A DNA stretch of 64,000 nucleotides. It comes from a virus. Taxonomy: Duplodnaviria; Caudoviricetes. The DNA is taken from IMG/VR virus record IMGVR_UViG_3300031813_000003, positions 96,001-160,000 of that record; one strand, given 5' to 3'. How positions within the stretch are numbered: position 1 is the stretch's first letter; each line of letters starts with the position of its first letter. Below, piece by piece: positions 46,880 through 60,282 of this stretch. Below the pieces are notes generated by a model. It was given only the letters and a program-made list of their open reading frames with translations, was not told where the DNA came from and made no database searches. The translations under genes and the position numbers were made by a program.

Positions 46880-47938
46880 ATGACACAGAAAAAAGAGTAC
46901 GACTATTCCGTAGTGATTTGCCGTTGCAATCCTCCACACCTTGGGCACAAAGACCTGATTGATTTCGCACTCTCACAAAGTGAGAAGGTTATCATCTTGC
47001 TAGGGTCTGCGCATCGCCCTAGAACAATCAAAAATCCATTCAAATGGCATGAACGTATGCTCATGATTGAATCCATGTATTCCGTATCTGTGGGTAAATT
47101 CATCTTTAAACCACTGAATGATTATATGTACAACAATCAAAAGTGGGCAATGGAAGTTCAAAACACAATTGATCTTGCAATTGAAGAAGACAATAGTGAT
47201 CCTGATACTGCTAAAGTTTGCCTTGTCGGAAATATAAAGGATGATAGTTCTTGGTATCTGTCTATCTTCCCGCAGTTTCCTTTGATTACTTCTGAATTCA
47301 AAAAGTTTGTGGGTAAAGAAATTCTATCTGCAACTCAGATTAGAAAGATCATGTTCGAATCTGATACAACTGAGACAATGAAAAAGCTTGAGCCTCATGT
47401 TCATAAAGGTGTTCGTCTTTATATTCAGGAATTTATGAAGACAAAAGAATTCGGAAAGCTTGCAATGGAACATGCATACATCAGGGACTATAAGAAATCT
47501 TGGGAAGCTGCACCGTATCCTCCAACTTTTGTAACAACTGATATTCTACTTATTCAATCTGGTCATGTACTTCTGATTGAACGTAGAGCAGAACCTGGGC
47601 GAGGTTTGTTTGCGATGCCTGGAGGATTTTTAAATCAAAATGAACTTATTGTAGATGGTGCAATTCGTGAACTACACGAAGAGACTAGGCTCAAAGTACC
47701 TATTCCTGTATTGAAAGGTAATATCAAAGAGGTAAAAGTCTTTGACAACATAAACCGTAGCTCAAGAGGAAGAACTATTACACATGTTGTTCATATAGAA
47801 CTTCCTGATGGCACACTACCAAGAGTAAAGGGGAATGATGATGCAAGTAGAGCATTCTGGTTACCATTGAAAGATATTAAAGCTGATACTTTTTTCGAAG
47901 ACCATATAGATATTATTCAGTCTGTTGTTGGTGTTTAG
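46880..47938 (+). CDS. Bifunctional NMN adenylyltransferase / ADP-ribose Nudix hydrolase (NadM-Nudix, NatV-like)
   Basis: R.NPPHLGH, LGSA..PR..KNPF, SATQIR, APYPPTFVT.D; Nudix box GG...E.......REL.EET; FFEDH. Confidence 0.95.
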   Translation: MTQKKEYDYSVVICRCNPPHLGHKDLIDFALSQSEKVIILLGSAHRPRTIKNPFKWHERMLMIESMYSVSVGKFIFKPLNDYMYNNQKWAMEVQNTIDLAIEEDNSDPDTAKVCLVGNIKDDSSWYLSIFPQFPLITSEFKKFVGKEILSATQIRKIMFESDTTETMKKLEPHVHKGVRLYIQEFMKTKEFGKLAMEHAYIRDYKKSWEAAPYPPTFVTTDILLIQSGHVLLIERRAEPGRGLFAMPGGFLNQNELIVDGAIRELHEETRLKVPIPVLKGNIKEVKVFDNINRSSRGRTITHVVHIELPDGTLPRVKGNDDASRAFWLPLKDIKADTFFEDHIDIIQSVVGV

Positions 47939-47944
47939 TGAGTA

Positions 47945-48000
47945 TTTATTCTCCCATATAAATAGTTATGTATCAATAAAAACTTATATGGGAGAATAAA
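47945..48000 (+). promoter_or_regulatory. Late promoter TATAAATA inside an SD-sequestering hairpin
   Basis: TTTATTCTCCCATATAA/TTATATGGGAGAATAAA; TATAAATA at 47957. Confidence 0.8.
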
Positions 48001-48601
48001 ATGTTAAAGAATGAAAGATTGGATATAACTGGTGAAGTATATAATAGATTGACTGCTATCAAGTTTGTTAAACAGCATCCAACTATGAGAAGAAGTATGT
48101 GGTTGTTTAAATGTGAATGTGGAAAAGAACTAGTATGTGATATGGTTACTGTTAGGAATGGGACTAGAACTAGTTGTGGTTGTTTACGATTAGAAAGAGT
48201 GAGTATATTTAATAAAAAAATCATAGAAAGACATATGGAGAATCTTGCAAAAAGTTGTATATAATAGTTATAAAAGTGGTGCTAAAACTAGAAATTTACC
48301 ATTTGATATAACTAGGGAGTTATTTAATGAATTAATAACTAAACCATGTTATTATTGCGGTGCAGAACCAAATAATAAAGCAACTGTAGCATGGAATGAT
48401 GATGTATATGTGTACCAAGGTATTGATAGAATAGATAACTTATTAGGATATACAAAGGAAAATTGTGTTCCTTGTTGTAAACAATGCAATTTAGGTAAAC
48501 GAGATTTATCTAGTAAAGATTTTTTAGAATGGATAACATCTGTACACCTTCACTCAATAAAGGGCAACTATGATAGAACTAATACAATCACCAGCTGTTA
48601 A
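48001..48601 (+). mobile_element. HNH homing endonuclease, split into two ORFs by indels
   Basis: DITG..YNRLT...W.FKCECG...SCGC, then C.YCG...GIDRIDN..GY...N.VPCC..CN..K. Confidence 0.8.
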
Positions 48602-49070
48602 AACATTCGAAGACTTTAACAAATTCTATTACGATACCAACAAATTGTTTCTAGGTGGTGGAATTAGTAATTGTCCTGATTGGCAACATTATATCAGTCT
48701 TAAATTTAAGCGGTATGATGGTGACTTGATGGTGTTCAATCCTAGGAGAGTTGGTGATCTAGCACCAGTTGGAAGTGAAGCTAGAACACAAATTCTTTGG
48801 GAACATCTTTACCTGATGCAGTCTTCCGCAATCCTTTTCTGGTTTCCTTGTGAAACAGTTTGTCCTATAACACTTTTCGAACTTGGGGTATGGGCAACCA
48901 GATACAAAGATACACCAGAGAATTTGATTATTGGCGCTCATCCTGATTACTCTAGGAAGTTTGATTTGGAAGTTCAACTTGAATTAATCAACCCTAGGAT
49001 CAAGATTCATTACAATTTAGACTCACTATTTCAAGGAGTTGTGAGTAGATTTGACTTAAAGGAGAAATAA
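48570..49070 (+). CDS. Nucleoside 2-deoxyribosyltransferase-like protein
   Basis: LFLGGGI...PDWQ, FNPRR, QI.WE, PITLFELG. Confidence 0.8.
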   Translation: MIELIQSPAVKTFEDFNKFYYDTNKLFLGGGISNCPDWQHYISLKFKRYDGDLMVFNPRRVGDLAPVGSEARTQILWEHLYLMQSSAILFWFPCETVCPITLFELGVWATRYKDTPENLIIGAHPDYSRKFDLEVQLELINPRIKIHYNLDSLFQGVVSRFDLKEK

Positions 49071-49071
49071 A

Positions 49072-49596
49072 TTGCGTTTGTATACTTTTATTAATATGTA
49101 TCTTTCCCCTATCCAAGCAGGGATTCAGTCTGCACATATCCTTGGGGAACTTCACAACAAAGCAGACTTCAATACAATTGTTACTAGAAGTGATGAATCT
49201 TATGGTAATGAATGTAATGTAGTTTACACCAAACGTAGTCTTATGACTAAAGATTACTCTCAGAATCATAAAACTATTGTTGTTTGTAGTGGTGGTAATG
49301 CTGCCAACATTCGTGAATACATCAAGTTCTTTGATTCTCCAGAGAATCTATATCCTTGGATACATTTTAACGAGGATCAAGACTCTCTGGATGGTGCCTT
49401 GACAGGGGTTGGTATTATTCTTCCAGAAGAAATTTACGAAGTCGAAGTTTCATTTGAAAATTACAAAACTTTTAGTGGTGACTTTGAAAAAATTAAGGTT
49501 TTTACTAATAAAATCACAGGTGTTAGATATGGTGATTCTACCAGTTATATTTACCAGTTGATAAACAAAATAAAATCTGCTCCCCTCTTTAAATAA
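49072..49596 (+). CDS. Peptidyl-tRNA hydrolase 2-like phage protein
   Basis: NMYLS.IQAGIQSAH, HKTIVV..GG, F.ED..SL.GALT.VG. Confidence 0.55.
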   Translation: MRLYTFINMYLSPIQAGIQSAHILGELHNKADFNTIVTRSDESYGNECNVVYTKRSLMTKDYSQNHKTIVVCSGGNAANIREYIKFFDSPENLYPWIHFNEDQDSLDGALTGVGIILPEEIYEVEVSFENYKTFSGDFEKIKVFTNKITGVRYGDSTSYIYQLINKIKSAPLFK

Positions 49597-49599
49597 TAA

Positions 49600-49658
49600 T
49601 TGACGTAAAATCAAATCTCCTGTAAGGTGTATCTATACTTACAAACAAAGGAGATTTC
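49600..49658 (+). promoter_or_regulatory. sigma70-type promoter with an anti-SD arm, heading the radical SAM cluster
   Basis: TTGACG-17-TAAGGT; AAATCTCCT/AGGAGATTT. Confidence 0.65.
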
Positions 49659-49974
49659 AATATGTCTGCCCTCAAGGTGATAAAATCAATTTCAACTAAA
49701 AATTTCATATTTGCATTGTTTAATCAATATATTGGATTCACCCATAACAACAAATTCACTCCTTGGAAATGGAGACAGGATTTGGGATATATCAAAGTGG
49801 TGAGGAAATGAAATTTCAAACATTGAAATGTTTCTTCGGATTTCACCAAATGATTGAAATCATCACAATAATTAGGGGTGATATATTTAACCTTAACTAC
49901 TTCCATTGTAAACATTGCGGATATGATGCATTACAACCTCGTCTTGATAGACTTTACGGTAAAGGAAATCAGAA

Positions 49975-50772
49975 ATGAAAGAGATTCGTAAAAGAGAATT
50001 TGCTAATGGATCGGTTCACTGTCTTCAACTGGAAGATGGTATGCTGATTGAAACCACTGACACATTTCTCCCCTACTACACCAAGAACTGCACAAATGGC
50101 AATAATTCGCTTCAGGATGCTAATCTAGGGGATAGAAGCGAAAGATGGATGGTTGGTGTGTCTACCATGTCGGGATGCCCTGTAGGGTGTAAATTCTGCG
50201 CCACAGGACAGATGAAAGGGTGGAGAAACCTTACAGCATCTGAAATTACAGAGCAAGTACTTTTTGTTATGGGAAAAAACAACAAAAGTATATATGAAAT
50301 TAAAAACCCTAAACATAGTAAGGAATTTAAAATCAACTATACTCGCATGGGAGAACCGTTTCTCAATATTGAAAATGTTAAACGTGCAATTGATAAGGTA
50401 AGTTATTTCATTCCAAACACACATCACTACGTTTCCACTGTAGGGATTAAAGGTTCTGACTTCAGTTGGATCAAGGGCAACATTACCCTCCAGATCAGTC
50501 TTCATAGTCTGGATGAAAATCGTAGACATGAACTGATTCCAATCAACAACCTCATGAGCATTGAAGAACTTGGGCAAATTAGAACCAATAGCAATCTGAA
50601 AACAACTGTCAATCTGACTTTGGTTGATGAAGCAGACTTCGATATTGAGAAGCTGAAGAAATATTTCGACCCTGAATTTTTCTTCATTAAACTTAGCCCT
50701 ATCAACAAGAATGTGATTTCTGAACAGAATCATCTTGGGGAAGGTATAATCAAAGTGAGGAACATTATTTAA
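49975..50772 (+). CDS. RlmN/Cfr-like class A radical SAM protein, C-terminally truncated, Cys118-equivalent is Gly
   Basis: IET, VGVSTMSGCPVGCKFCATG, RNLTASEI.EQV, MGEP..N, VSTVG, ISLH, R..LIPIN, IKLSPIN; no CGQL. Confidence 0.85.
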   Translation: MKEIRKREFANGSVHCLQLEDGMLIETTDTFLPYYTKNCTNGNNSLQDANLGDRSERWMVGVSTMSGCPVGCKFCATGQMKGWRNLTASEITEQVLFVMGKNNKSIYEIKNPKHSKEFKINYTRMGEPFLNIENVKRAIDKVSYFIPNTHHYVSTVGIKGSDFSWIKGNITLQISLHSLDENRRHELIPINNLMSIEELGQIRTNSNLKTTVNLTLVDEADFDIEKLKKYFDPEFFFIKLSPINKNVISEQNHLGEGIIKVRNII

Positions 50773-51032
50773 TGCCATACTATCTGTTAATGATCCTATT
50801 AGGATTTCTGTTAAGGTACTTCTTTCAAGCAACCGGTATAGCTGTACTAACATTTTTGTGTTTGTTCATTGGATTTATTTGGCTTTGGCGAGCGCAGGAG
50901 ATCGAACAAATATTACCAATGATATTCTTGGTTGTTACTGTTGTATCTAGCGCAAGTGCTTGGGCAACATGGTATTTTGTTAATGGTAAAACTTGTGTTG
51001 GAGATTTTCTAAAACATTATATATTGAGGTAA
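50772..51032 (+). CDS. Small membrane protein
   Basis: Two to three hydrophobic helices. Confidence 0.6.
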   Translation: MPYYLLMILLGFLLRYFFQATGIAVLTFLCLFIGFIWLWRAQEIEQILPMIFLVVTVVSSASAWATWYFVNGKTCVGDFLKHYILR

Positions 51033-51184
51033 AATGAAGACCTTTCGTGAAGGTGGGACGTTTCCATGTGATCCTAATATCGGAATGACTAGCAGATACG
51101 AAAATGATGAACTTGTGATCATTCCAGTTGACAATACAACAGATCAATTACTTTTCAGATTCTATATAGAGGATAAAGAACGTG

Positions 51185-51964
51185 ATGCGACATTTAAAAG
51201 GCTTAAGGACAATTACAAATCTTCACTGTAATAATCACTGTAAGTTTTGTTATCAGAAAGATAAATCAGCGAAGATTCTTGATCTGAATGAGTTTTTAGC
51301 TCAGGTCAAACCATACAACTATAAACATTTTGAGTATTGTACTATCATGGGTGGAGAATCTACACTACTTTCTAATCTCCCTGAGTATATCAAGATCGGA
51401 AGTCTGTATGCGAAAGAAACTAGATTGACAACCAATGGTGTGCTTCTGACTCCGAAGTTGTTCAATCATTATCTTAACGCAGGGCTAAATGGTATTAATA
51501 TTTCAATTGCTACAATTAAAAAATATGATACTGTTCATGGTATTCATCCAAATTTTGATATTGATAAACTTTTGGATATGATTGATTACATGCATGGGCA
51601 TTCGTTCAACCCTGCTAACAATTTCTCTGTAAGGGTGAACATTCCACTTTGCAAAGAGAACTGCGAAGGAAAGAATCCTGAAATTCTCTTTCTACTGGAC
51701 TATTTCACTAGGATGAATATCAACGTGACCATGTGCGAAGATATCAAAGGAAGTTATTCATTCTACAATGAATTTGACAAAATTTTATGTGATGTGAAGG
51801 AAGTAACAGATTACGGTTTGATCCTACTTGATTACAACGGTCATCAGATCGGTTATTACACTCACAGAAACAACAATTACAACGAGACTGATCTAGTTGT
51901 AAGTCCATTAGGGACTTGGATCAATTGGGATGGTTACTGTAAAGCAGTAGGGATGAATACATGA
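51185..51964 (+). CDS. Radical SAM protein
   Basis: CNNHCKFC, MGGES, LTTNG, GINISI. Confidence 0.85.
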   Translation: MRHLKGLRTITNLHCNNHCKFCYQKDKSAKILDLNEFLAQVKPYNYKHFEYCTIMGGESTLLSNLPEYIKIGSLYAKETRLTTNGVLLTPKLFNHYLNAGLNGINISIATIKKYDTVHGIHPNFDIDKLLDMIDYMHGHSFNPANNFSVRVNIPLCKENCEGKNPEILFLLDYFTRMNINVTMCEDIKGSYSFYNEFDKILCDVKEVTDYGLILLDYNGHQIGYYTHRNNNYNETDLVVSPLGTWINWDGYCKAVGMNT

Positions 51965-52499
51965 CATTAACAATATGTGACATTTGCCCTATGATTTGAA
52001 TCAAAAGATAAAGACTAGGTATGGTTACTTTTGTGAAAGTGCAGGGTGTGATCAAACAAGTATGGAAGGGTTCCCTACTATATTTGACGAATATTATGAA
52101 TATCTTTGGGCAAAGGAATGGTATGATGAAAACTATGATTACAGTATGGAAGATATATAACAAAGACAAAGATATTTATCAGCATAACCACGTTGAAGAT
52201 GGTCATTCTACTTCAGAGTATCCTCTTCCAAAGCAACTTTCATTTCAATCACAGAAGTCATGGAAAAGTATGAAGTGGCAACGTGAATTTGGATATTTAG
52301 ATAAAGGAATTATATGGAACGAAACCCTTTAATTTTACTATGTAATGGATTTAATTATTGTAATCATCCTAGCTGTGATCATAAATTACCACATAGACCA
52401 CATTCTCACCATGATCCTAGGCTCTTGCTTCTTTATGAATAAAGAGTATTGGTGTGTTCCGATTGAACATATGTATGATGAATTAAAGGTAGTAAAATA

Positions 52500-53070
52500 A
52501 TGCATGGTGATATGACCAAATATATGGGTCTAGAAAATGAAGATATGAACTACTATGAATCTTACGATTCAATGGACATTCCTTGGGAGTTATACTCAAA
52601 ATCTGAAAGTATGAGAAAACATTGTGAGACAATCTGTAGACTATATACTGAAACTGGACTTCGGATCAGGGCATAACCCAAGGAAAGGGTTTAAGACCTG
52701 TGATATCACCCAGGCTCCCTATCTTGATTACGCCTTTGACCCTGAGACTTACAAGGTGACTTGTGAAGATCATGTCTTTGATGAGATAATAATTCGAAAT
52801 GTTCTTCATCATATCAAGGACTTAGAAAGTCTTTTTAAAGAAATGAAAAGAATATTGACAAATAATGGAAAATTGATTATAGTAGAACCACGTAAAGAGT
52901 TTTATCAACAAAACCTTAATTTGGATATTTTGTGGTATCGCTACATAATCCCACGTTACGAAATTTGGTATTCCAGATTTTATAGAGACTGCATAGAGAT
53001 TGCGAAAACATTCTTCAAGGTGAAGAATGTTTTCTATAACAACGAAAAAGAAACTATTATTTTAGGATAA
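52500..53070 (+). CDS. Class I SAM-dependent methyltransferase (ORF 52624-53070; possibly starts at 52500 across a TA-run indel)
   Basis: LDFGSG motif I; FDEI..RNVLHHI.D; EMKRIL...G.LII.E. Confidence 0.7.
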
Positions 53071-53079
53071 GGAATTAAA

Positions 53080-53325
53080 ATGGCAATGCAACCATCAGCA
53101 CTGGAAACAGAAATAGGAAAGTTCATGAATGCTAAACAGAAAGCAGAAGATCAAGGGCTTTCTGCTAAAGAATTTGAGGAACGATTCAACATGATGTTCC
53201 TTGAGGGGCAAGTGTCAAAAGATGGATATAAGTTACTCCGTCAGATTTTCGGATATACCAAAGTGATTCAGGAAACTAAAACTGAAATCCAATATATTGA
53301 ACACAATAGCAATGGAAGATGCTAA
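53080..53325 (+). CDS. Small protein A of a paralogous pair, C-terminal Cys
   Basis: FEER.N..FLEGQ.....Y.LLRQIFGY; ends NSNGRC. Confidence 0.75.
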   Translation: MAMQPSALETEIGKFMNAKQKAEDQGLSAKEFEERFNMMFLEGQVSKDGYKLLRQIFGYTKVIQETKTEIQYIEHNSNGRC

Positions 53326-53326
53326 G

Positions 53327-53545
53327 ATGACAATGGAAGATGAAATCAAATTTTATATGGATGCAAAGGCCAAAGCAGTTGCCGCAGGAAAAGAAAAAGA
53401 TTTCGAACAACGAATGAATCTTCTTTTTCTGGAGGGGCAAATTACAGAGAACTCTTATTTGATCCTTCGTCAGATTTTCGGTTATACTACAATCGTGCGC
53501 CATACTCCTAAACTTGCTGTTAATTTCCGTTCTACTACCTGTTAA
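53327..53545 (+). CDS. Small protein B of a paralogous pair, C-terminal Cys
   Basis: FEQR.N..FLEGQ.....Y.ILRQIFGY; ends FRSTTC. Confidence 0.75.
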   Translation: MTMEDEIKFYMDAKAKAVAAGKEKDFEQRMNLLFLEGQITENSYLILRQIFGYTTIVRHTPKLAVNFRSTTC

Positions 53546-53694
53546 ATGGAAGATTTTACTGAAGCTGAACTTATGGAACTTCGTATGTACTTTCATGCAT
53601 GTTGGAGTAATGCAATATACTCTGAAGAATACAAAAAGCATGAATGGCAGCATTTGTGTAAACTACTATCCAAGAAAGGAATAAACGTACAGAT

Positions 53695-54594
53695 ATGAAA
53701 CTCAAACTGTTTGGTAAAGATTTCGAAGTCAAGGATCATCACTGTAACTTCAATGATCATGTAGGATCAAAGATCGATGAACCATATGTCAATCTTTATG
53801 TTCGTCTTACGGATATCTGCCAAGCAAAATGTAAGTTCTGTGAATTTCATAAAAGTAAATCACCAGAATTTGATGTATACAAGTTCCTATACACGTTAAC
53901 ACGTTTGTCTAAAGAAGTACGGATTAATAAAGTATCTTTTACCGGTGGGGAACCCACGCTTAATGTTGAGTTGCTGAACAGACTTCTCAAAGAAGTAAAA
54001 AGTATTGATCCAAGTATCTTCACTGTTGTGAATACCAACGGTTATAACTTTATGAACATTGATCCTGAGTATGTGAATAGTATTGCTCTTTCAAGGCATC
54101 ATACATCGAATGCCAAGAACAATGAAATTTTTGGGGTTGACCCATACGGTATTTGGATCACTAATTCTAATGAAATCAGAAAGTATCCGCATAAAGACAA
54201 ACTTCATCTTTCGTGTAACCTGATTAAAGGTTATATTGATTCAAATAAAATGTGTTTTGATTATATTCAGTATTTTGGTGAAATGGGTATAACTGATATC
54301 GGATTTGTTACTTTTATGAGTGTGAATGAATATGCTCATACTCACCAAGTCGATTTCTCTGATATCAATTTGGATGAAATGCCTGCTACAATCAAGTCCC
54401 AAAATTGGCGCAAAGTAGAAGAAGGTGAGATTAAATGTAAATGCTGTAACTATCTCACTTCTACTGGAAGTGGTAATATTGTGAAGTCTTACGCTAGGTA
54501 TTACTCCGATAGAACTGAATGTAAAGGAATTCTGGTATATGAACCGAATGGTAAACTAACCAATGGATTTGGTGGAGAGGTTATAAATGGTTAA
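53695..54594 (+). CDS. Radical SAM protein
   Basis: CQAKCKFC, SFTGGEP, VNTNG, ALSRHH; C-terminal CKC...C. Confidence 0.9.
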   Translation: MKLKLFGKDFEVKDHHCNFNDHVGSKIDEPYVNLYVRLTDICQAKCKFCEFHKSKSPEFDVYKFLYTLTRLSKEVRINKVSFTGGEPTLNVELLNRLLKEVKSIDPSIFTVVNTNGYNFMNIDPEYVNSIALSRHHTSNAKNNEIFGVDPYGIWITNSNEIRKYPHKDKLHLSCNLIKGYIDSNKMCFDYIQYFGEMGITDIGFVTFMSVNEYAHTHQVDFSDINLDEMPATIKSQNWRKVEEGEIKCKCCNYLTSTGSGNIVKSYARYYSDRTECKGILVYEPNGKLTNGFGGEVING

Positions 54595-54740
54595 ACATAG
54601 AAGAGGATTACCTCGTAAACCTCAAAATACTGGATTTATTGATGGGTTAGGTATATGAGTGAGCATACTGCACTGAATATAGCATTGTTCATCTGTTGTG
54701 TTGTTGTATATGGATACTGTAAATTCAAAGGAATAATATA

Positions 54741-55325
54741 ATGATGCGAGATAAGGTAGCACTCTTCGATATGGATGGAACACTGGCTGATTATGATGGT
54801 CAGCTACTAAAGGATTTAGAGAAGATTCGTTCCAAATATGAACCAAAGATATTTGATGTTCATTGTGATATTGATTATGTGGAAGCACGTAGGCATATGA
54901 TCACAAGTCAAGCAGGGTGGTGGTTGAGACTCCCTAAATTCCAGTTAGGATGGGAAGTATATGCTCAATGCCAGTATATAGGATACAAGATTGCTATCTT
55001 GACCAAAGGCCCTGCTTCCAAATATAATGCATGGTCTGAGAAGCTTCAGTGGTGCCATGCTCACCTAGGCAAAGATAACATCAGTGGAGTGACCATTACC
55101 CATGATAAAGGGCTGGTATATGGGAATGTTCTGGTGGATGATTTCCCTGATTACATCGAAGCTTGGTTGAAATTTCGCCCTAGGGGTCTGGTTATCATGC
55201 CAGCGCATGAATTCAATAAAAAATTTAAACATCCTAATGTTGTTCGTTATGATGGAACCAATATGAACGAAGTTGTTTTAAGACTGTTAGAGCAATATAA
55301 TAGAAAACAAATAGACAAAGAATAA
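54741..55325 (+). CDS. HAD-family 5'(3')-nucleotidase-like protein
   Basis: LFDMDGTLAD, ILT, EKLQW, LVDD. Confidence 0.85.
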   Translation: MMRDKVALFDMDGTLADYDGQLLKDLEKIRSKYEPKIFDVHCDIDYVEARRHMITSQAGWWLRLPKFQLGWEVYAQCQYIGYKIAILTKGPASKYNAWSEKLQWCHAHLGKDNISGVTITHDKGLVYGNVLVDDFPDYIEAWLKFRPRGLVIMPAHEFNKKFKHPNVVRYDGTNMNEVVLRLLEQYNRKQIDKE

Positions 55326-55335
55326 ATCTTTTGTT

Positions 55336-55899
55336 ATGATAGGTACAAATGAATTTAAGGAAAGAGAAATGGATGTAATAAGTTGTAGTAAATTTTTGAG
55401 TTTTGTATTGAGGCATAAACCTCAAGAAATCGGGATCACTCTTGATGAAGCAGGGTGGGTTGGTATTTACGAATTACTACACAAAGCTAAATCGAAGGGT
55501 ATTGTAATTAGCATTGAACTTTTGAAAAAAGTAGTAGCAGAGAACAACAAGAAGAGATTTGAGTTTTCTACTGATCAAACAAAGATCAGGGCAAGCCAAG
55601 GTCATTCGGTAAAAGTTGAACTCGGATATGAACACACAGTCCCTCCTAAATTCTTATATCATGGAACCTGTGAAAGATTTGTAGATTCAATCTTGCAGGA
55701 AGGAATTCAGAAAATGAGTAGGCATCATGTTCATCTTTCTGATAACATCAATACTGCAAAACAAGTGGGTTCCAGACATGGTGATGTGTTTGTGTTTGTT
55801 GTGAAAGCTGCTGAAATGCATAAACATGGATTCGCATTCTTCAAATCAACAAATGGGGTGTGGTTAGTCGATCATGTCCCTAGTGAGTATATCGTATGA
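55336..55899 (+). CDS. kptA: NAD-dependent RNA 2'-phosphotransferase (Tpt1/KptA)
   Basis: SKFLS.VLRH, KKRF, IRASQGHS, LYHGT, RHHVHLS, NGVWL. Confidence 0.95.
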   Translation: MIGTNEFKEREMDVISCSKFLSFVLRHKPQEIGITLDEAGWVGIYELLHKAKSKGIVISIELLKKVVAENNKKRFEFSTDQTKIRASQGHSVKVELGYEHTVPPKFLYHGTCERFVDSILQEGIQKMSRHHVHLSDNINTAKQVGSRHGDVFVFVVKAAEMHKHGFAFFKSTNGVWLVDHVPSEYIV

Positions 55900-56047
55900 A
55901 AGGTATGTTTGAAAAGTGTGATGGAGAACATAACTGGTTAAAAGTAAAAGTGCATAGAGGTACTTATCCAAGAACCAGATTTTGTTGTTGCGAATGTTGT
56001 AATGCCCGACAAGTAAAACAATCAAATGATTCAGAATGGGATAATAT

Positions 56048-56383
56048 ATGAAGCGAATCTTTATCAGCATTCCATATACTCATCCTGATCCAGCAGTTGT
56101 TGAAGAAAGGGTGAAAGCAGCTGAATCTTACTTTATGGAACTTCTTCATAGAGGCGATTGCCCTGTAAGCCCTGTTGTAGTCGGCCATAACTTCGTGACT
56201 AAATATGGAGCAAACTGCTCTTTTGAATTTTGGGACAAGTTCTGTATGGAGCAACTCGCTACTTGTAGTGAATTACACATACTGACCCTTGATGGATGGG
56301 ATACATCAACCGGTGTTGCAAAAGAAAATGACATGGCACAATATTTTTTTGGTATACCAGTAAGAATGATAGAACCTAAATAA
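56048..56383 (+). CDS. DUF1937-like (deoxyribosyltransferase-fold) protein
   Basis: IFIS.PYTH, SPVV.GH, FW...C, L.LDGW..S.GV..E. Confidence 0.75.
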   Translation: MKRIFISIPYTHPDPAVVEERVKAAESYFMELLHRGDCPVSPVVVGHNFVTKYGANCSFEFWDKFCMEQLATCSELHILTLDGWDTSTGVAKENDMAQYFFGIPVRMIEPK

Positions 56384-56407
56384 AACTAAAAAGGACGGTG
56401 ATTCAAA

Positions 56408-56527
56408 ATGGAAACTATTCAGGAACAGCTTAAAGAAGCAGGGTTTGATTTTGCAGTAGCTATCGCAACTGAAGCAGAGATTACTGCTGGTGCTGCGTGT
56501 GGGCAACTTAGTCTAATCGTAGAGTAA
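56408..56527 (+). CDS. 39-aa peptide matching the RlmN/Cfr C-terminal catalytic segment (not in ORF track)
   Basis: Hand translation METIQEQLKEAGFDFAVAIATEAEITAGAACGQLSLIVE*; AAGGA upstream; next ATG abuts the stop. Confidence 0.85.
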   Translation: METIQEQLKEAGFDFAVAIATEAEITAGAACGQLSLIVE

Positions 56528-56681
56528 ATGAATACTGTGTATGAAATTCGGGTCTGGTTGCCTAAACAAGGCAATAAGATTGCATTAGTTAATGCGTCAA
56601 ATCCAGAAGAAGCATATCAACTTATTGAAGATTTTGTAATACAACAATTTCAAAATGACAGAATAACATTAGTAGATTTAA

Positions 56682-56705
56682 AGGATGAACGATAGACGTT
56701 CACCT
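56682..56705 (+). promoter_or_regulatory. G-AUAGA-C loop hairpin upstream of NAMPT
   Basis: AGG(A)TGAACG-ATAGA-CGTTCACCT. Confidence 0.6.
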
Positions 56706-56732
56706 ATTTCAACAGTAAGGGAGTCTTACGTT

Positions 56733-58271
56733 ATGAATGTAGTATTTAATGCAGTAGGCAAAGATATTGTAAAAGCGTTTCCAGCTGGGTTTACTTATAA
56801 AACAGAAGATGGTTCTGTTTTATTCAGTCCTTGGGTATCCTACCCTAATCAACGAATTTGGAATGAGAATAACCTGTTACTCAAAGTAGATTCTTATAAG
56901 CCAAGTCATGCACCCTGTTATCCTCCTGATGCAGATGCAATGGAATCTTACATCGAAGCAAGAGCAGGAGATCACCTTCTGTTTTTCGGTCTTCAGATGT
57001 ACATCCAGAAGTATCTGATGACTCCTATCTCCCAAGCAGATATCGATGAAGCTGTAGATTTCTTTGCACTTCATGGTGAGCCTTTCGATAAAGAAATGTG
57101 GCAACACATTTTTGACACTTACAACGGGTTTATTCCTGTTGTGATTTCTGCAATCCCTGAAGGAACTGTAGTCCCTAACCGAAATATCATTGCAAAGATT
57201 TCTTGCACTGATAAGAAATGCTTCAGTGTAGCTTCTTATCTTGAAACTTCGTTCCTCAGAGGGGTATGGTATCCATCGTCTACAGGAACTATTAGTTATG
57301 ACTGCCGTGTAGAAATCAAAAAATACATGGAACTGACTGCTGACTCTCTTGAAGGACTTAACTTCAAACTACACAGCTTTGCTGGTAGGGGTGTTAGTTC
57401 CAGTGAATCTGCAGCACTTGGTGATGCTGGTCATATGGCAACTGGTGCAATGGGGTCTGACACTGTAGAAGGGGTCATACGGGCAAATAATGCCTATGGG
57501 TGTACCGGTGGTATGTCTGCATTCTCTATCCCTGCTACAGAGCATTCTACGATTACCAGTTGGGGGAAAGAAAACGAGGCAGCTGCATATAAAAACTTCC
57601 TCGACAAATATCTTCTGCCTGGAAAAATCTGTGCATGTGTCTCTGACTCCTATGACATCATGGAAGCATGTGACATTTGGGGAACAATTCATAAAGATCA
57701 GATTGTGAATTCTGGTGGAACATTAGTTGTTCGTCCTGATTCTGGTGAACCAGCACCTACGGTTCTTGCTGTAGTTGAACGTCTGGAAAAGTATTTTGGA
57801 ACTACTGTAAACTCCAAAGGTTATAAAGTTCTCCCTGATTGTATCAGGGTTATCCAAGGTGATGGAATTAACAGGAATGCTATTGTGGAAATCCTCCAGC
57901 TGCTTATGTGGAAAGGATATTCTGCTGACAACGTTGCCTTTGGTATGGGTGGAGCATTACTTCAACATGTAAACCGTGATACCTTTGGTTTCGTTATGAA
58001 GTGTTGCGCAATCAGGATTGGTGGAGTTTGGGTTGATGTGTTCAAGGAAGCTCCAGGCAAGAACAGTAAGAAAGGTAGACTTGAACTGATTCAGTACCCT
58101 GATAGAACCTATGAAACTATCAGGGTTGAAGATATCCGTTGGGTTGATAACAAGATGGAAGGTAAGAAAGTACTTGAAATCGCTTACCAATTGGTAAAAC
58201 AGGGAAACTTCTATTACCCTGTTTACCGTCACCAAGATTTGGATGATGTTCGTGAACGTGCAAATCGTTAA
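56733..58271 (+). CDS. nadV: Nicotinamide phosphoribosyltransferase
   Basis: DSYK.SH, FFGLQ, PEGT, LET, LH.F..RG, SIPATEHS, VSDSYD, VVRPDSG, VIQGDG, FGMGG.LL; start chosen from the AAGGGAG SD. Confidence 0.93.
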   Translation: MNVVFNAVGKDIVKAFPAGFTYKTEDGSVLFSPWVSYPNQRIWNENNLLLKVDSYKPSHAPCYPPDADAMESYIEARAGDHLLFFGLQMYIQKYLMTPISQADIDEAVDFFALHGEPFDKEMWQHIFDTYNGFIPVVISAIPEGTVVPNRNIIAKISCTDKKCFSVASYLETSFLRGVWYPSSTGTISYDCRVEIKKYMELTADSLEGLNFKLHSFAGRGVSSSESAALGDAGHMATGAMGSDTVEGVIRANNAYGCTGGMSAFSIPATEHSTITSWGKENEAAAYKNFLDKYLLPGKICACVSDSYDIMEACDIWGTIHKDQIVNSGGTLVVRPDSGEPAPTVLAVVERLEKYFGTTVNSKGYKVLPDCIRVIQGDGINRNAIVEILQLLMWKGYSADNVAFGMGGALLQHVNRDTFGFVMKCCAIRIGGVWVDVFKEAPGKNSKKGRLELIQYPDRTYETIRVEDIRWVDNKMEGKKVLEIAYQLVKQGNFYYPVYRHQDLDDVRERANR

Positions 58272-58287
58272 GAAGTGAAAGTTTAAA

Positions 58288-58346
58288 TTGACAAATAAAT
58301 CTCCTTTGTGTTAAGATGTTTATACATTCAATCACAAAGGAGATTT
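58288..58346 (+). promoter_or_regulatory. sigma70-type promoter with an anti-SD inverted repeat
   Basis: TTGACA-18-TAAGAT; AAATCTCCTTTGTG/CACAAAGGAGATTT. Confidence 0.75.
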
Positions 58347-58349
58347 TTC

Positions 58350-58625
58350 ATGTCTATTTCAACTGTTGTCGATCTTAAAGATTGCCCTTTCTGCGGTCGT
58401 AGAGAAAAATCCTTTTATTTTGGACCTACTTCAGCAATGACATAGGGGATTGAATGCCCCTGTGGATGTAAGATGGAAGAAAAGATGTTTAACTCTTATT
58501 CAAAAAAAGATAAAGAAATAATGAAACAGATAGAAGATAAAAATTGTAATGACATGGGTTGCGTGTTAGCTTTAGATGTTTTTCATATGTTGAACGTAGC
58601 AGCAAAATGGAATACTAGAAAATGA
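58350..58625 (+). pseudogene. Lar (restriction alleviation)-like Zn-ribbon gene with an in-frame TAG at 58443
   Basis: LKDCPFCG...T*GIECPCGC...AAKWNTR in one frame. Confidence 0.55.
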
Positions 58626-58638
58626 CAGAGGAGACAAA

Positions 58639-58866
58639 ATGAAACTTAAATACGTGATAGTCAATTGTATGCCAATCATCTTTCCGTTAGGATTTCAGCA
58701 TAACGTGTTTGAACAAATTGGTGAGATTGAAGGTGCTGGTTTCGTTAATATTGTGAATGATCATGGAGAACTGAAAGGGAAAGTTCATGGTAAATCAACA
58801 TCAACGGGATTTGACGCTTGTCAAGACGATGAAATAATGATAAATATCATGTTGAAAGACCGTTAG
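58639..58866 (+). CDS. Conserved small phage protein
   Basis: KY.I....PIIFP...QH...GAGF...G.STS. Confidence 0.6.
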   Translation: MKLKYVIVNCMPIIFPLGFQHNVFEQIGEIEGAGFVNIVNDHGELKGKVHGKSTSTGFDACQDDEIMINIMLKDR

Positions 58867-59196
58867 GGAGGAGATTTATAAATGCAAGGAATTTTGTTTT
58901 ATATTATTGTGATGTAACCAACAAAGGAATAATAATGAAAATACATGTTGTTGAATTTAATGATGGAACATACGGTGTAAGAAAGATTATTGGTTGGTGG
59001 ATTTTCAAATCTGAACCGGTGTATCTAGATTTAAAAAGTAATTCGGTATATTTTTGGGGTAAACTATCAGATTATTTTGATCACTGTAAAACACCAAATA
59101 AGGAATTAGCAATATCAATGTATCAAAGATATATTGAAGATGAAAAAATAATTTATCCGTAAAGGTTAATATCAAAGGAGTCGATAAGATTAAAGA

Positions 59197-60282
59197 ATGA
59201 ATGTAAATGTAAACGAAGTAGAAGCAAATGAAGTGACTGATAGAGATTTACTAGCTGTAGTCTATAAAGTAGAAAGGCTAGAAGCAATCCCTAACAAAGA
59301 TCGGATCGAACTTGTTCACCTGAAGGACTGTGGATATACTTGTATCTGTGAAAAAGGTCACACCGTAGGAGATTTGGTTGTATTCATCAAGTATGATACA
59401 ATTCTCCCTAAAATCGAAATGTTTAACTGGATGGCAGAATCTAAATACCGTGTTAAACCAAAATCCTTTACAGAGAGGGATGAAGAAGATAACGTAGTAA
59501 AGAAGATTTACAGTCAAGGTATTGTTATCCCCTTTCGTGTAGTTTCTGAATATATTGAATGTGATGATATCAATATTCGTTTTGAAGGTGCTGACCTAAC
59601 TTCATATCTAGGAATCGTCAAATACATTGCGCCTGTATCAAATGGTGGAATGGGTAATATGCAGTCAAAGGGTGATTTCCCTACCCACAAAGTATCAAAG
59701 ACAGATGAAATGAATGTCTGCTCTAAGATGAAAGCATACGCTGAAATTCAAGGGCAAGAAGTTTACATCACTCAGAAGATCGAAGGTTCATCTGTTACTT
59801 TCTTCTGTGAAGATGATGAACTAGTTGTTTGTAGCAGAAACAACATCCTTATTGAAACTGAGGGTAACAAGTTTTGGCAAGGAGTTAAGAAGTACGATAC
59901 TAAAACTTTGTTCACTGATCTTCCTTGGTTGATTTGTCAGGCTGAACTTTATGGCCCAGGAATTCAGAAAAACAAACTAGGAACTGAATCTGTTGATATT
60001 ATGATCTTCAACATGATTGATGGAAGAACTAGGCAGAAGCTTGGTTACTACCGGATGATTGATATCGCAGTTAAATATAAGCTTCCTCTTGTTCCACTAA
60101 TTTGTTGTATCCAAAGTTTTGATTGGACTTTTGAACAACTTCAAGAATTTACTGATAAACAGAAGTACCCAAATGGTGAACTAGCTGAAGGTGTTGTTAT
60201 TCGTCCAGTAGAACCATTCATCAGTAAGGTTCTCCATGAAGAATGGTCCCTCAAATGTATTTCAAGAGAATACAAGCTTTGA
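59197..60282 (+). CDS. RNA ligase, Rnl2/DRB0094-like
   Basis: N-terminal IP..DRIE domain; KTDE; TQKIEGSS (motif I Lys); ELYGPGIQKN; EGVV; LKCIS..Y. Confidence 0.9.
   Translation: MNVNVNEVEANEVTDRDLLAVVYKVERLEAIPNKDRIELVHLKDCGYTCICEKGHTVGDLVVFIKYDTILPKIEMFNWMAESKYRVKPKSFTERDEEDNVVKKIYSQGIVIPFRVVSEYIECDDINIRFEGADLTSYLGIVKYIAPVSNGGMGNMQSKGDFPTHKVSKTDEMNVCSKMKAYAEIQGQEVYITQKIEGSSVTFFCEDDELVVCSRNNILIETEGNKFWQGVKKYDTKTLFTDLPWLICQAELYGPGIQKNKLGTESVDIMIFNMIDGRTRQKLGYYRMIDIAVKYKLPLVPLICCIQSFDWTFEQLQEFTDKQKYPNGELAEGVVIRPVEPFISKVLHEEWSLKCISREYKL

Follow-up and report, generated by a model that had tools for sequence, protein, structure and literature searches.

RlmN and Cfr are the textbook examples of enzymes that methylate by way of a methyl-cysteine bound in the protein, and Cfr confers a resistance that is important in the clinic. 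A phage locus raises the question of how an enzyme of this type could work when its catalytic cysteine is encoded by a separate gene and the cysteine that completes the reaction is missing. The locus lies in a stretch of 64,000 nucleotides, here called the window, which covers positions 96001–160000 of the virus record IMGVR_UViG_3300031813_000003 (Caudoviricetes; 215,974 bp in total). It comprises a large (core) subunit, an RlmN/Cfr-like radical S-adenosylmethionine (SAM) barrel of 265 amino acids (aa; 49975–50772, + strand), and a small subunit, an acidic peptide of 39 aa encoded 5.6 kb downstream (56408–56527, + strand). A first-pass annotation had described the pair as a split enzyme without a resolving cysteine, and had suggested that the peptide is used in trans as an exchangeable co-substrate. 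We find that the split is genuine, conserved, and widespread. The reading we favor, with moderate confidence, is that of a widespread two-subunit enzyme of class A radical SAM ancestry that would act on a nucleotide-type target, with either a non-canonical release step or a thioether that persists.

An RlmN-like core without Cys118 and Cys355

The core was assigned by family match, fold, and alignment. It carries the RlmN-type motif series as first described—i.e. CPVGCKFC (C68, C72, and C75), RMGEP, STVG, ISLHS, and LIPIN—and RlmN is its best family (TIGR00048, E 3.9e-23), with residues 54–199 aligned to positions 101–244 of the 355-position model. The curated cutoffs of the class A families (TIGR00048 and NF000424) are not reached, with 82 vs 290 bits for TIGR00048 and 62 vs 530 bits for CfrAB. 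The AlphaFold 2 (AF2) model of the core has a predicted local distance difference test (pLDDT) score of 91.5, and RlmN and Cfr make up its top 11 Foldseek matches (E 4e-11 to 1e-6). A profile of 37 core relatives, compared with solved structures, also matches only RlmN and Cfr. The class A barrel of RlmN (PDB 3RFA, 4PL1, 5HR7, and 6FZ6) and Cfr (PDB 9P0P), with its CxxxCxxC, MGEP, ST.G, and SLH motifs, is thus shared by the core, and these two enzymes are its best matches in sequence and in fold.

Unlike RlmN and Cfr, the core ends just past the last core strand, and the loop that holds Cys355 (Cys338 in Cfr) is not in the same polypeptide. It also lacks their N-terminal helical RNA-binding domain: the TIGR00048 match begins at model position 101 of 355, and only ~55 residues, predicted to form three strands, precede the cluster motif. 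In RlmN, methyl-Cys355 gives rise to a methylene radical that adds to C2 of adenine, while Cys118, now seen as a general base, is essential for resolving the cross-link, such that C118 mutants remain cross-linked (PMC9692996). The equivalent position in the core lies seven residues ahead of the first cluster cysteine (position −7), in VGVSTMSGC, and is occupied by Gly61. A hidden Markov model alignment places this residue in the Cys118 column, where 6FZ6 has Cys and the C118A mutant 4PL1 has Ala, so that the split core has Gly where RlmN and Cfr have their general base (Cys118 and Cys105, respectively). Gly61 is invariant among the 37 diverse members. C16 (VHCL) and C39 (KNCT) had been named at the outset as residues that might occupy the resolving site. 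Neither is conserved among the relatives, in which the only invariant core cysteines are the three cluster ligands, and both are rejected as substitutes.

The missing loop is a separate gene under purifying selection

As originally reported, the peptide gene has its own start (ATG) and stop (TAA), and it is preceded at ~13 nt by a Shine-Dalgarno-like AGGA. Its product consists of a helix, a strand, an AACGQL loop, and a hydrophobic tail, and its C-terminal end reads AGAACGQLSLIVE. Profile comparison with fused relatives matches the peptide to their C-terminal Cys-loop segment (hhalign E 5e-5, residues 283–316 of 340), and a second such alignment has E 0.0056. The AACGQL loop is RlmN-like, and its spacing to the preceding strand is equal by eye. 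These alignments bear out the claim that the peptide is the missing Cys355 segment supplied in trans, and Cys31 is presumed to be the methyl-accepting cysteine. The peptide profile has no significant match among PDB sequences, and tblastn with the 39-aa peptide returns only the Moorella phage at E 3, probably because of the length of the query.

The peptide is conserved along its entire length, most strongly at the Cys loop, and ten positions are invariant (G12, A18, A20, T21, E24, A29, A30, C31, G32, and Q33). In the peptide core, the values are 0.82 for synonymous sites (pS) and 0.22 for nonsynonymous sites (pN)—i.e. synonymous sites are saturated and nonsynonymous sites constrained—and the peptide is under purifying selection.

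In Vibrio phage D479, a single ORF of 74 aa (L004:3857–4081) holds two complete peptide units in tandem. Both copies are intact and share 75 of 96 nt (78%), with mostly synonymous differences. No longer fused or tandem forms passed when the 47-aa peptide of locus L007 was used as query, which is weak evidence.

Core and peptide genes co-occur across phages

On IMG/VR and GTDB contigs, one peptide ORF lies within 6 kb of the core gene at 134 of 136 loci whose −7 residue is Gly, far more often than chance would give; the peptide genes of the fetched loci were located by motif scans. Once loci are clustered at 70% identity into 33 lineages, the peptide gene is present in 32, and the exception has almost no flank. 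Truncated Cys118-less homologues and a free AACGQL peptide therefore do occur together, a check that the first-pass annotation had proposed. The place of the peptide gene varies: it can adjoin the core gene, lie 1–3 kb downstream or a few genes away, or even be found upstream (loci L012 and L131). The closest relative found (L007, core 76% identical) has the order core, rSAM3 (an accessory radical SAM gene described below), peptide, and NAMPT. In the closest GenBank relatives, Kehishuvirus 'tikkala' (66% identity) and Moorella phage MTATph1 (42%), an AACGQL ORF of 40–43 aa directly follows the core gene, and in FelixO1-like phages of Pectobacterium and Yersinia one gene separates the two.

The region 49500–57000 is tiled by near-identical contigs from four other lake or freshwater metagenome runs, at least 99% alike in 65 of 68 cases, with two single-letter differences listed among the tiling contigs. 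These contigs rule out a chimeric assembly. Together with the varying position and order of the peptide gene, they also lead us to reject a frameshift, a read-through, or an assembly artifact, in line with the earlier view that the distance and the intervening intact genes rule out a frameshift artifact.

The split core family includes 2465 clusters (90% identity) at E < 1e-5, and the core is 257–283 aa long in all of the best 120 of these clusters. It is carried by gut crAss-like, T4-like, and FelixO1-like phages, and is seen mainly in phage and metagenomic contigs, which again differs from RlmN and Cfr. We found no NCBIfam or PHROG model specific to the family, no small upstream ORF that is common to the loci compared and could act as a conserved third component, and, in literature searches, no published description of a split phage RlmN.

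Several observations stand beside this distribution. Of the 22 forms of at least 465 aa, 21 bear inteins, and the remaining one (P0008, 554 aa) has an extra Pfam domain, PF22945. The inteins carry a LAGLIDADG homing endonuclease in some large subunits (L130:143–1768; proteins P0007 and P0009–P0028), and in L130 the intein sits exactly ahead of the third cluster cysteine (CKF / intein ... HN / CATG), a catalytic motif being a typical intein site. Large contigs from isolates of Bacteroidales in culture also contain the split system (L101, Bacteroides congonensis, 1.85-Mb contig; L109; and L112). This suggests integrated or carried phages, and possible experimental systems.

Predicted assembly and a possible RNA target

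Co-folding the two chains had been proposed as a check on the split. The predicted core–peptide complex has an interaction prediction score from aligned errors (ipSAE) of 0.70, vs 0.01 for the best of three controls; in calibration, 58 of 80 solved complexes attain the ipSAE mark, as do 2 of 110 mismatched pairs. Across prediction runs at least 81% of contacts are common, and the partner pLDDT is at least 66. Specifically, peptide residues 13–16 are predicted to pair with core residues 236–240, i.e. the last core strand (FFIKL), while the peptide helix packs on core residues 224–233 and the peptide tail (33–37) on the N-terminal sheet. The peptide is thus predicted to dock by strand complementation, in a placement against the last core strand that resembles RlmN, and the modeled interface would anchor it before and after the Cys loop, as in an obligate subunit. 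The docking result supports binding, as a prediction. With co-occurrence observed and association predicted, the pair has the features of an obligate two-subunit, naturally split enzyme.

The peptide is acidic (median net charge −4, median pI 4.3), the core is close to neutral, and three of the four cellular RlmNs checked are basic. Within the core, R124, K209, and K239 are residues found specifically in the Cys118-less clade described below. These properties bear on whether the locus encodes an ordinary RNA methylase that happens to be in two pieces, modifying C2 or C8 of adenine in host or phage rRNA or tRNA with another residue or a solvent thiol in place of Cys118. Such an enzyme would agree with RlmN and Cfr being the nearest relatives in sequence and fold, with the RlmN-like spacing of the Cys loop and its alignment to the loop segment of fused relatives, and with the conserved, clade-specific Lys and Arg residues. 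In addition, the favored role of C118 is that of a base, which another group could in principle fill (PMC9692996). We nevertheless regard this explanation as improbable, because the score is far under the family cutoff (82 vs 290 bits), there is no N-terminal RNA-binding domain, the charge of the holoenzyme is near neutral to acidic, and no tRNA genes were found in the window. It would also leave unexplained an accessory radical SAM enzyme of a nucleoside triphosphate (NTP)-acting type and the nicotinamide adenine dinucleotide (NAD) gene context, both presented below.

Loss of Cys118 predates the split

A search of 1.84 billion representative sequences gives 8252 matches, and we tallied the residue at −7 and the tail Cys in the near-complete sequences among the best 150 of these. 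The tail Cys is absent from all 26 sequences with Gly at −7 and present in 0, whereas sequences with Cys at −7 have it in 28 cases and lack it in 5. With any other residue at −7, it is present in 28 and absent in 10. In a FastTree tree rooted on cellular RlmN, all sequences without the −7 Cys form one clade with 99% support. A 52-sequence IQ-TREE tree (LG+G4) with the same rooting also recovers them as one clade (Shimodaira–Hasegawa-like approximate likelihood-ratio test, SH-aLRT, 98), with one change. Within this Cys118-less clade, a fused 'GSNCGQ' group (SH-aLRT 98) is sister to a second group, a polytomy in which the split family stands beside a cellular tail-less group and a fused TICTM clade that has Cys at −5.

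Because the Cys118-less branch also holds fused, single-chain enzymes, the trees indicate that the Cys118 equivalent was lost once, before the split. The existence of these fused enzymes means that the split is not needed to explain the missing cysteine. The first-pass annotation had tied the absent resolving Cys to the trans peptide; both features are real, but the order of events argues against deriving one from the other.

The fused GSNCGQ clade (e.g. P0198 and P0240) resembles the split family in lacking the −7 Cys and in having R124, K209, and K239, and differs from it in being a single chain, with the Cys loop in cis, in a cellular operon. Two of its representatives (L225:4510–6936 and L226:488–3010) lie in a conserved operon of overlapping genes, together with an isochorismatase-family cysteine hydrolase and a thioredoxin reductase (TrxR)-like flavoprotein without CxxC. 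The latter is probably an FNR-type electron donor. As a resolving dithiol acting in trans it is rejected, since it has no CxxC and looks FNR-type. By contrast, fused short phage RlmN-like proteins (~310–320 aa; e.g. in Stenotrophomonas phage ANB28, Salmonella phage Arash, and Aeromonas phage Ahp1) share with the split core a phage setting, the lack of the N-terminal domain, and the same superfamily branch, yet keep both cysteines on one chain (Cys at −7 and a GGGCGQLW tail).

Two further forms were seen. A cellular KIGVSL.SGC group (L160:2132–2971 and L161:798–1619; P0217 and P0188) has Gly at −7 and keeps the helix–strand segment in cis, with the Cys loop wholly missing; one of these genes adjoins pyruvate kinase and greA, and no peptide was seen near them, but the contigs are short. 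Bacteroides phage Versailles (L158:2321–3328) encodes a fused RlmN-like protein with Thr at −7 and a divergent tail motif, ITCGNA, which is another single-chain form without the Cys118 equivalent.

The order of events also bears on the idea of the peptide as a consumable cross-linker. In that scheme, each turnover would permanently link the peptide, via Cys-S-CH2, with adenine in RNA, in DNA, or in a nucleotide, fresh peptide would keep the core turning over, and the adduct would be the functional product, e.g. by inactivating host RNA. The persistent cross-link of RlmN C118 mutants (PMC9692996), the invariant Gly at −7 without a conserved substitute Cys, and the restriction of this Gly to tail-less forms (26 without the tail Cys vs 0 with it) all point in its direction, and the tandem peptide of D479 would suit a reagent needed in quantity. 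However, the fused Cys118-less sisters would then be suicide enzymes, and the chemistry does not require the split. The predicted interface would grip the peptide at either flank of the Cys loop, as in a fixed subunit, most phages have a single copy of the peptide gene, the RNA-binding N-domain is missing, and a peptide with a median net charge of −4 is an odd partner for nucleic acid. Given the fused Cys118-less relatives and the two-sided anchoring, we disfavor the view that the split evolved through consumption of the peptide, and consider a consumable peptide unlikely overall.

Accessory genes and the setting of the locus

The intact genes between core and peptide had been taken as evidence that the gene is truly split. 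That conclusion stands, but they are not mere bystanders, as three of them are recurrent accessory genes of the split system, a feature that RlmN and Cfr lack. The first, rSAM2 (51182–51964, + strand), encodes a MoaA/viperin-like accessory radical SAM enzyme of 260 aa. Its AF2 model (pLDDT 82) has MoaA 1tv7 as the nearest structure (query-normalized template modeling score, TMq, 0.69), and viperins are also matched; MoaA and viperins act on free NTPs. The second is a small class I SAM methyltransferase of 148 aa (52624–53070, + strand; Methyltransf_11 and related families, phrog_5399 E 8.6e-32). The third, rSAM3 (53695–54594, + strand), is an accessory radical SAM enzyme of 299 aa with matches to HxsC, MoaA, activase-like proteins, and YydG.

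A reverse search from rSAM2 finds the split core within 6 kb in 61 of 62 IMG/VR loci. This search was run with an alignment, a single-sequence scan having given just two marginal matches, and rSAM2 has zero matches in 50,697 GenBank phage records. The rSAM2 and methyltransferase genes occur together in 10 of the 33 lineages, in several gene orders. The rSAM3 gene is found in 7 of 33, and at 8 of 11 loci it is 42–414 nt upstream of the peptide gene. The two core genes stand alone, with no accessory enzyme within 6 kb, in ~60% of lineages. Gut-phage homologues of rSAM2 (e.g. L104:6786–7580 and L094:6786–7574) have a stretched cluster motif, C-x12-C-x2-C (CNMNESTGPNGNCYFC), unlike the copy in the window, which has the usual CxxxCxxC.

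Between the methyltransferase and rSAM3 genes lie two overlapping, paralogous small ORFs of 81 and 82 aa (53080–53545, + strand), both ending in Cys and without family matches in the library scans. A homologue of the second is found between core and rSAM3 in locus L017. They may be partners of rSAM3, and their membership in the system is uncertain.

Linkage of this kind would suit a carrier-peptide pathway, in which the peptide would resemble a small, acidic carrier protein and the substrate is tethered to Cys31 through a methylene bridge and elaborated by rSAM2, the methyltransferase, and rSAM3 before release. The near-exclusive location of rSAM2 and the methyltransferase beside the split system (61 of 62 loci) and the usual position of rSAM3 just ahead of the peptide gene (42–414 nt) are consistent with it. 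So is the acidity of the peptide (median pI 4.3), and the missing release residue would hold an intermediate in its tether. On the other hand, ~60% of lineages have only the two core genes within 6 kb, the accessory enzymes might instead act on a released product, and we know of no precedent for such a carrier peptide. We give this pathway a low probability, and an equally low one to its extension, that the carrier peptide and the accessory enzymes build a modified nucleotide, possibly NAD-related, for the phage's conflict with host defenses. The tandem peptide of D479 and the exclusive accessory enzymes are what keep the carrier and consumable explanations under consideration.

A system resembling those of peptides made by the ribosome and modified after translation (RiPPs) would go further and make the peptide itself both substrate and final product, with up to three radical SAM enzymes and the methyltransferase altering it at its Cys or by way of it. 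In the window, the small peptide gene does lie amid three radical SAM genes and a methyltransferase, the best family matches of rSAM3 include the peptide maturases HxsC and YydG, and two more small Cys-ending proteins are encoded in the cluster. This we consider highly improbable, as the peptide is conserved throughout and matches the RlmN catalytic loop rather than showing a leader and a variable core. In addition, neither an RRE nor a SPASM domain is detected by family scans of the core, rSAM2, and rSAM3, and most lineages have only core and peptide.

The split system in the window is embedded in an island (46880–60282) of NAD-salvage, nucleotide, and RNA-repair genes. These encode NMNAT-Nudix (46880–47938), two nucleoside deoxyribosyltransferase-like proteins (48570–49070 and 56048–56383), NT5C (54741–55325), Tpt1/KptA (55336–55899), NAMPT (56685–58271), and an RNA ligase (59197–60282). 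NMNAT-Nudix is found near the split core in 11 of the 33 lineages and NAMPT in 5, so that the system often adjoins NAD-salvage genes, unlike RlmN and Cfr. NT5C, Tpt1, and DUF1937 accompany it in this lineage only. The record as a whole is T4-like, encoding a gp43-type polymerase, topoisomerase II subunits, a Dda helicase, and a baseplate wedge protein, and its word matches are to lake and freshwater metagenomes. The region has zero megablast matches to GenBank phages.

Proposed mechanism and substrate

We infer the chemistry, the substrate class, and the release step of the favored two-subunit enzyme as follows. The core would bind the [4Fe-4S] cluster and SAM, and the separately translated peptide would add a strand beside FFIKL, putting the AACGQL loop into the active site. 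By homology, Cys31 would first be S-methylated by SAM. A 5'-deoxyadenosyl radical would then turn the Cys31 methyl group into a thiomethylene radical, which would add to a substrate carbon of the sp2 type. The Cys that in RlmN acts as general base to release the product was lost before the split, an absence common to the fused sister enzymes. As this Cys is absent, release must be non-canonical or the Cys-CH2-substrate thioether must persist—i.e. either another group triggers release or the adduct stays. In this phage, the two genes would have been driven 5.6 kb apart by insertions, some of them accessory genes that belong to the system itself.

The substrate is more likely to be a nucleotide-type small molecule, possibly NAD-related, than A2503 of 23S rRNA. 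This preference follows from the missing RNA-binding N-domain, the near-neutral core, and the acidic peptide. It also draws on rSAM2, which is of the NTP-acting type, on the NMNAT-Nudix and NAMPT neighbors, and on the small-molecule-type operon of the GSNCGQ group.

Several points weigh against this interpretation. Homology is the basis for the methylation of Cys31, for the substrate, and for the product. The nucleotide and NAD hints are contextual, and T4-like synteny may explain part of the adjacency to NAD genes, while the operon of the sister clade is known from two representatives only. Cellular RlmN, a C2-methyltransferase of A2503 in 23S rRNA, acts on tRNA (A37) as well, so an RNA target may apply here. 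The docking score may come partly from likeness to solved single-chain RlmN structures, and the order of loss and split is read from FastTree and quick LG+G4 trees, with a polytomy around the split family.

Implications for phages and for class A chemistry

Thousands of phage sequences have placed the methyl-carrying cysteine on a peptide of about 39 residues and dropped the releasing cysteine. The split system would thereby offer a natural means to load, swap, and analyze a reactive cysteine by mass spectrometry, and it would show whether a class A reaction can stop at a stable thioether adduct or reach release by a different route. Several of the crAss-like, T4-like, and FelixO1-like phages that carry it are in culture. 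Phages with the split genes that are available as cultures include Kehishuvirus 'tikkala', Pectobacterium phages Wc4 and Arno18, Yersinia phage P778, and Vibrio phage D479. For the phages themselves, the exclusive accessory enzymes and the NAD-salvage neighborhood suggest a pathway of nucleotide modification or counter-defense.

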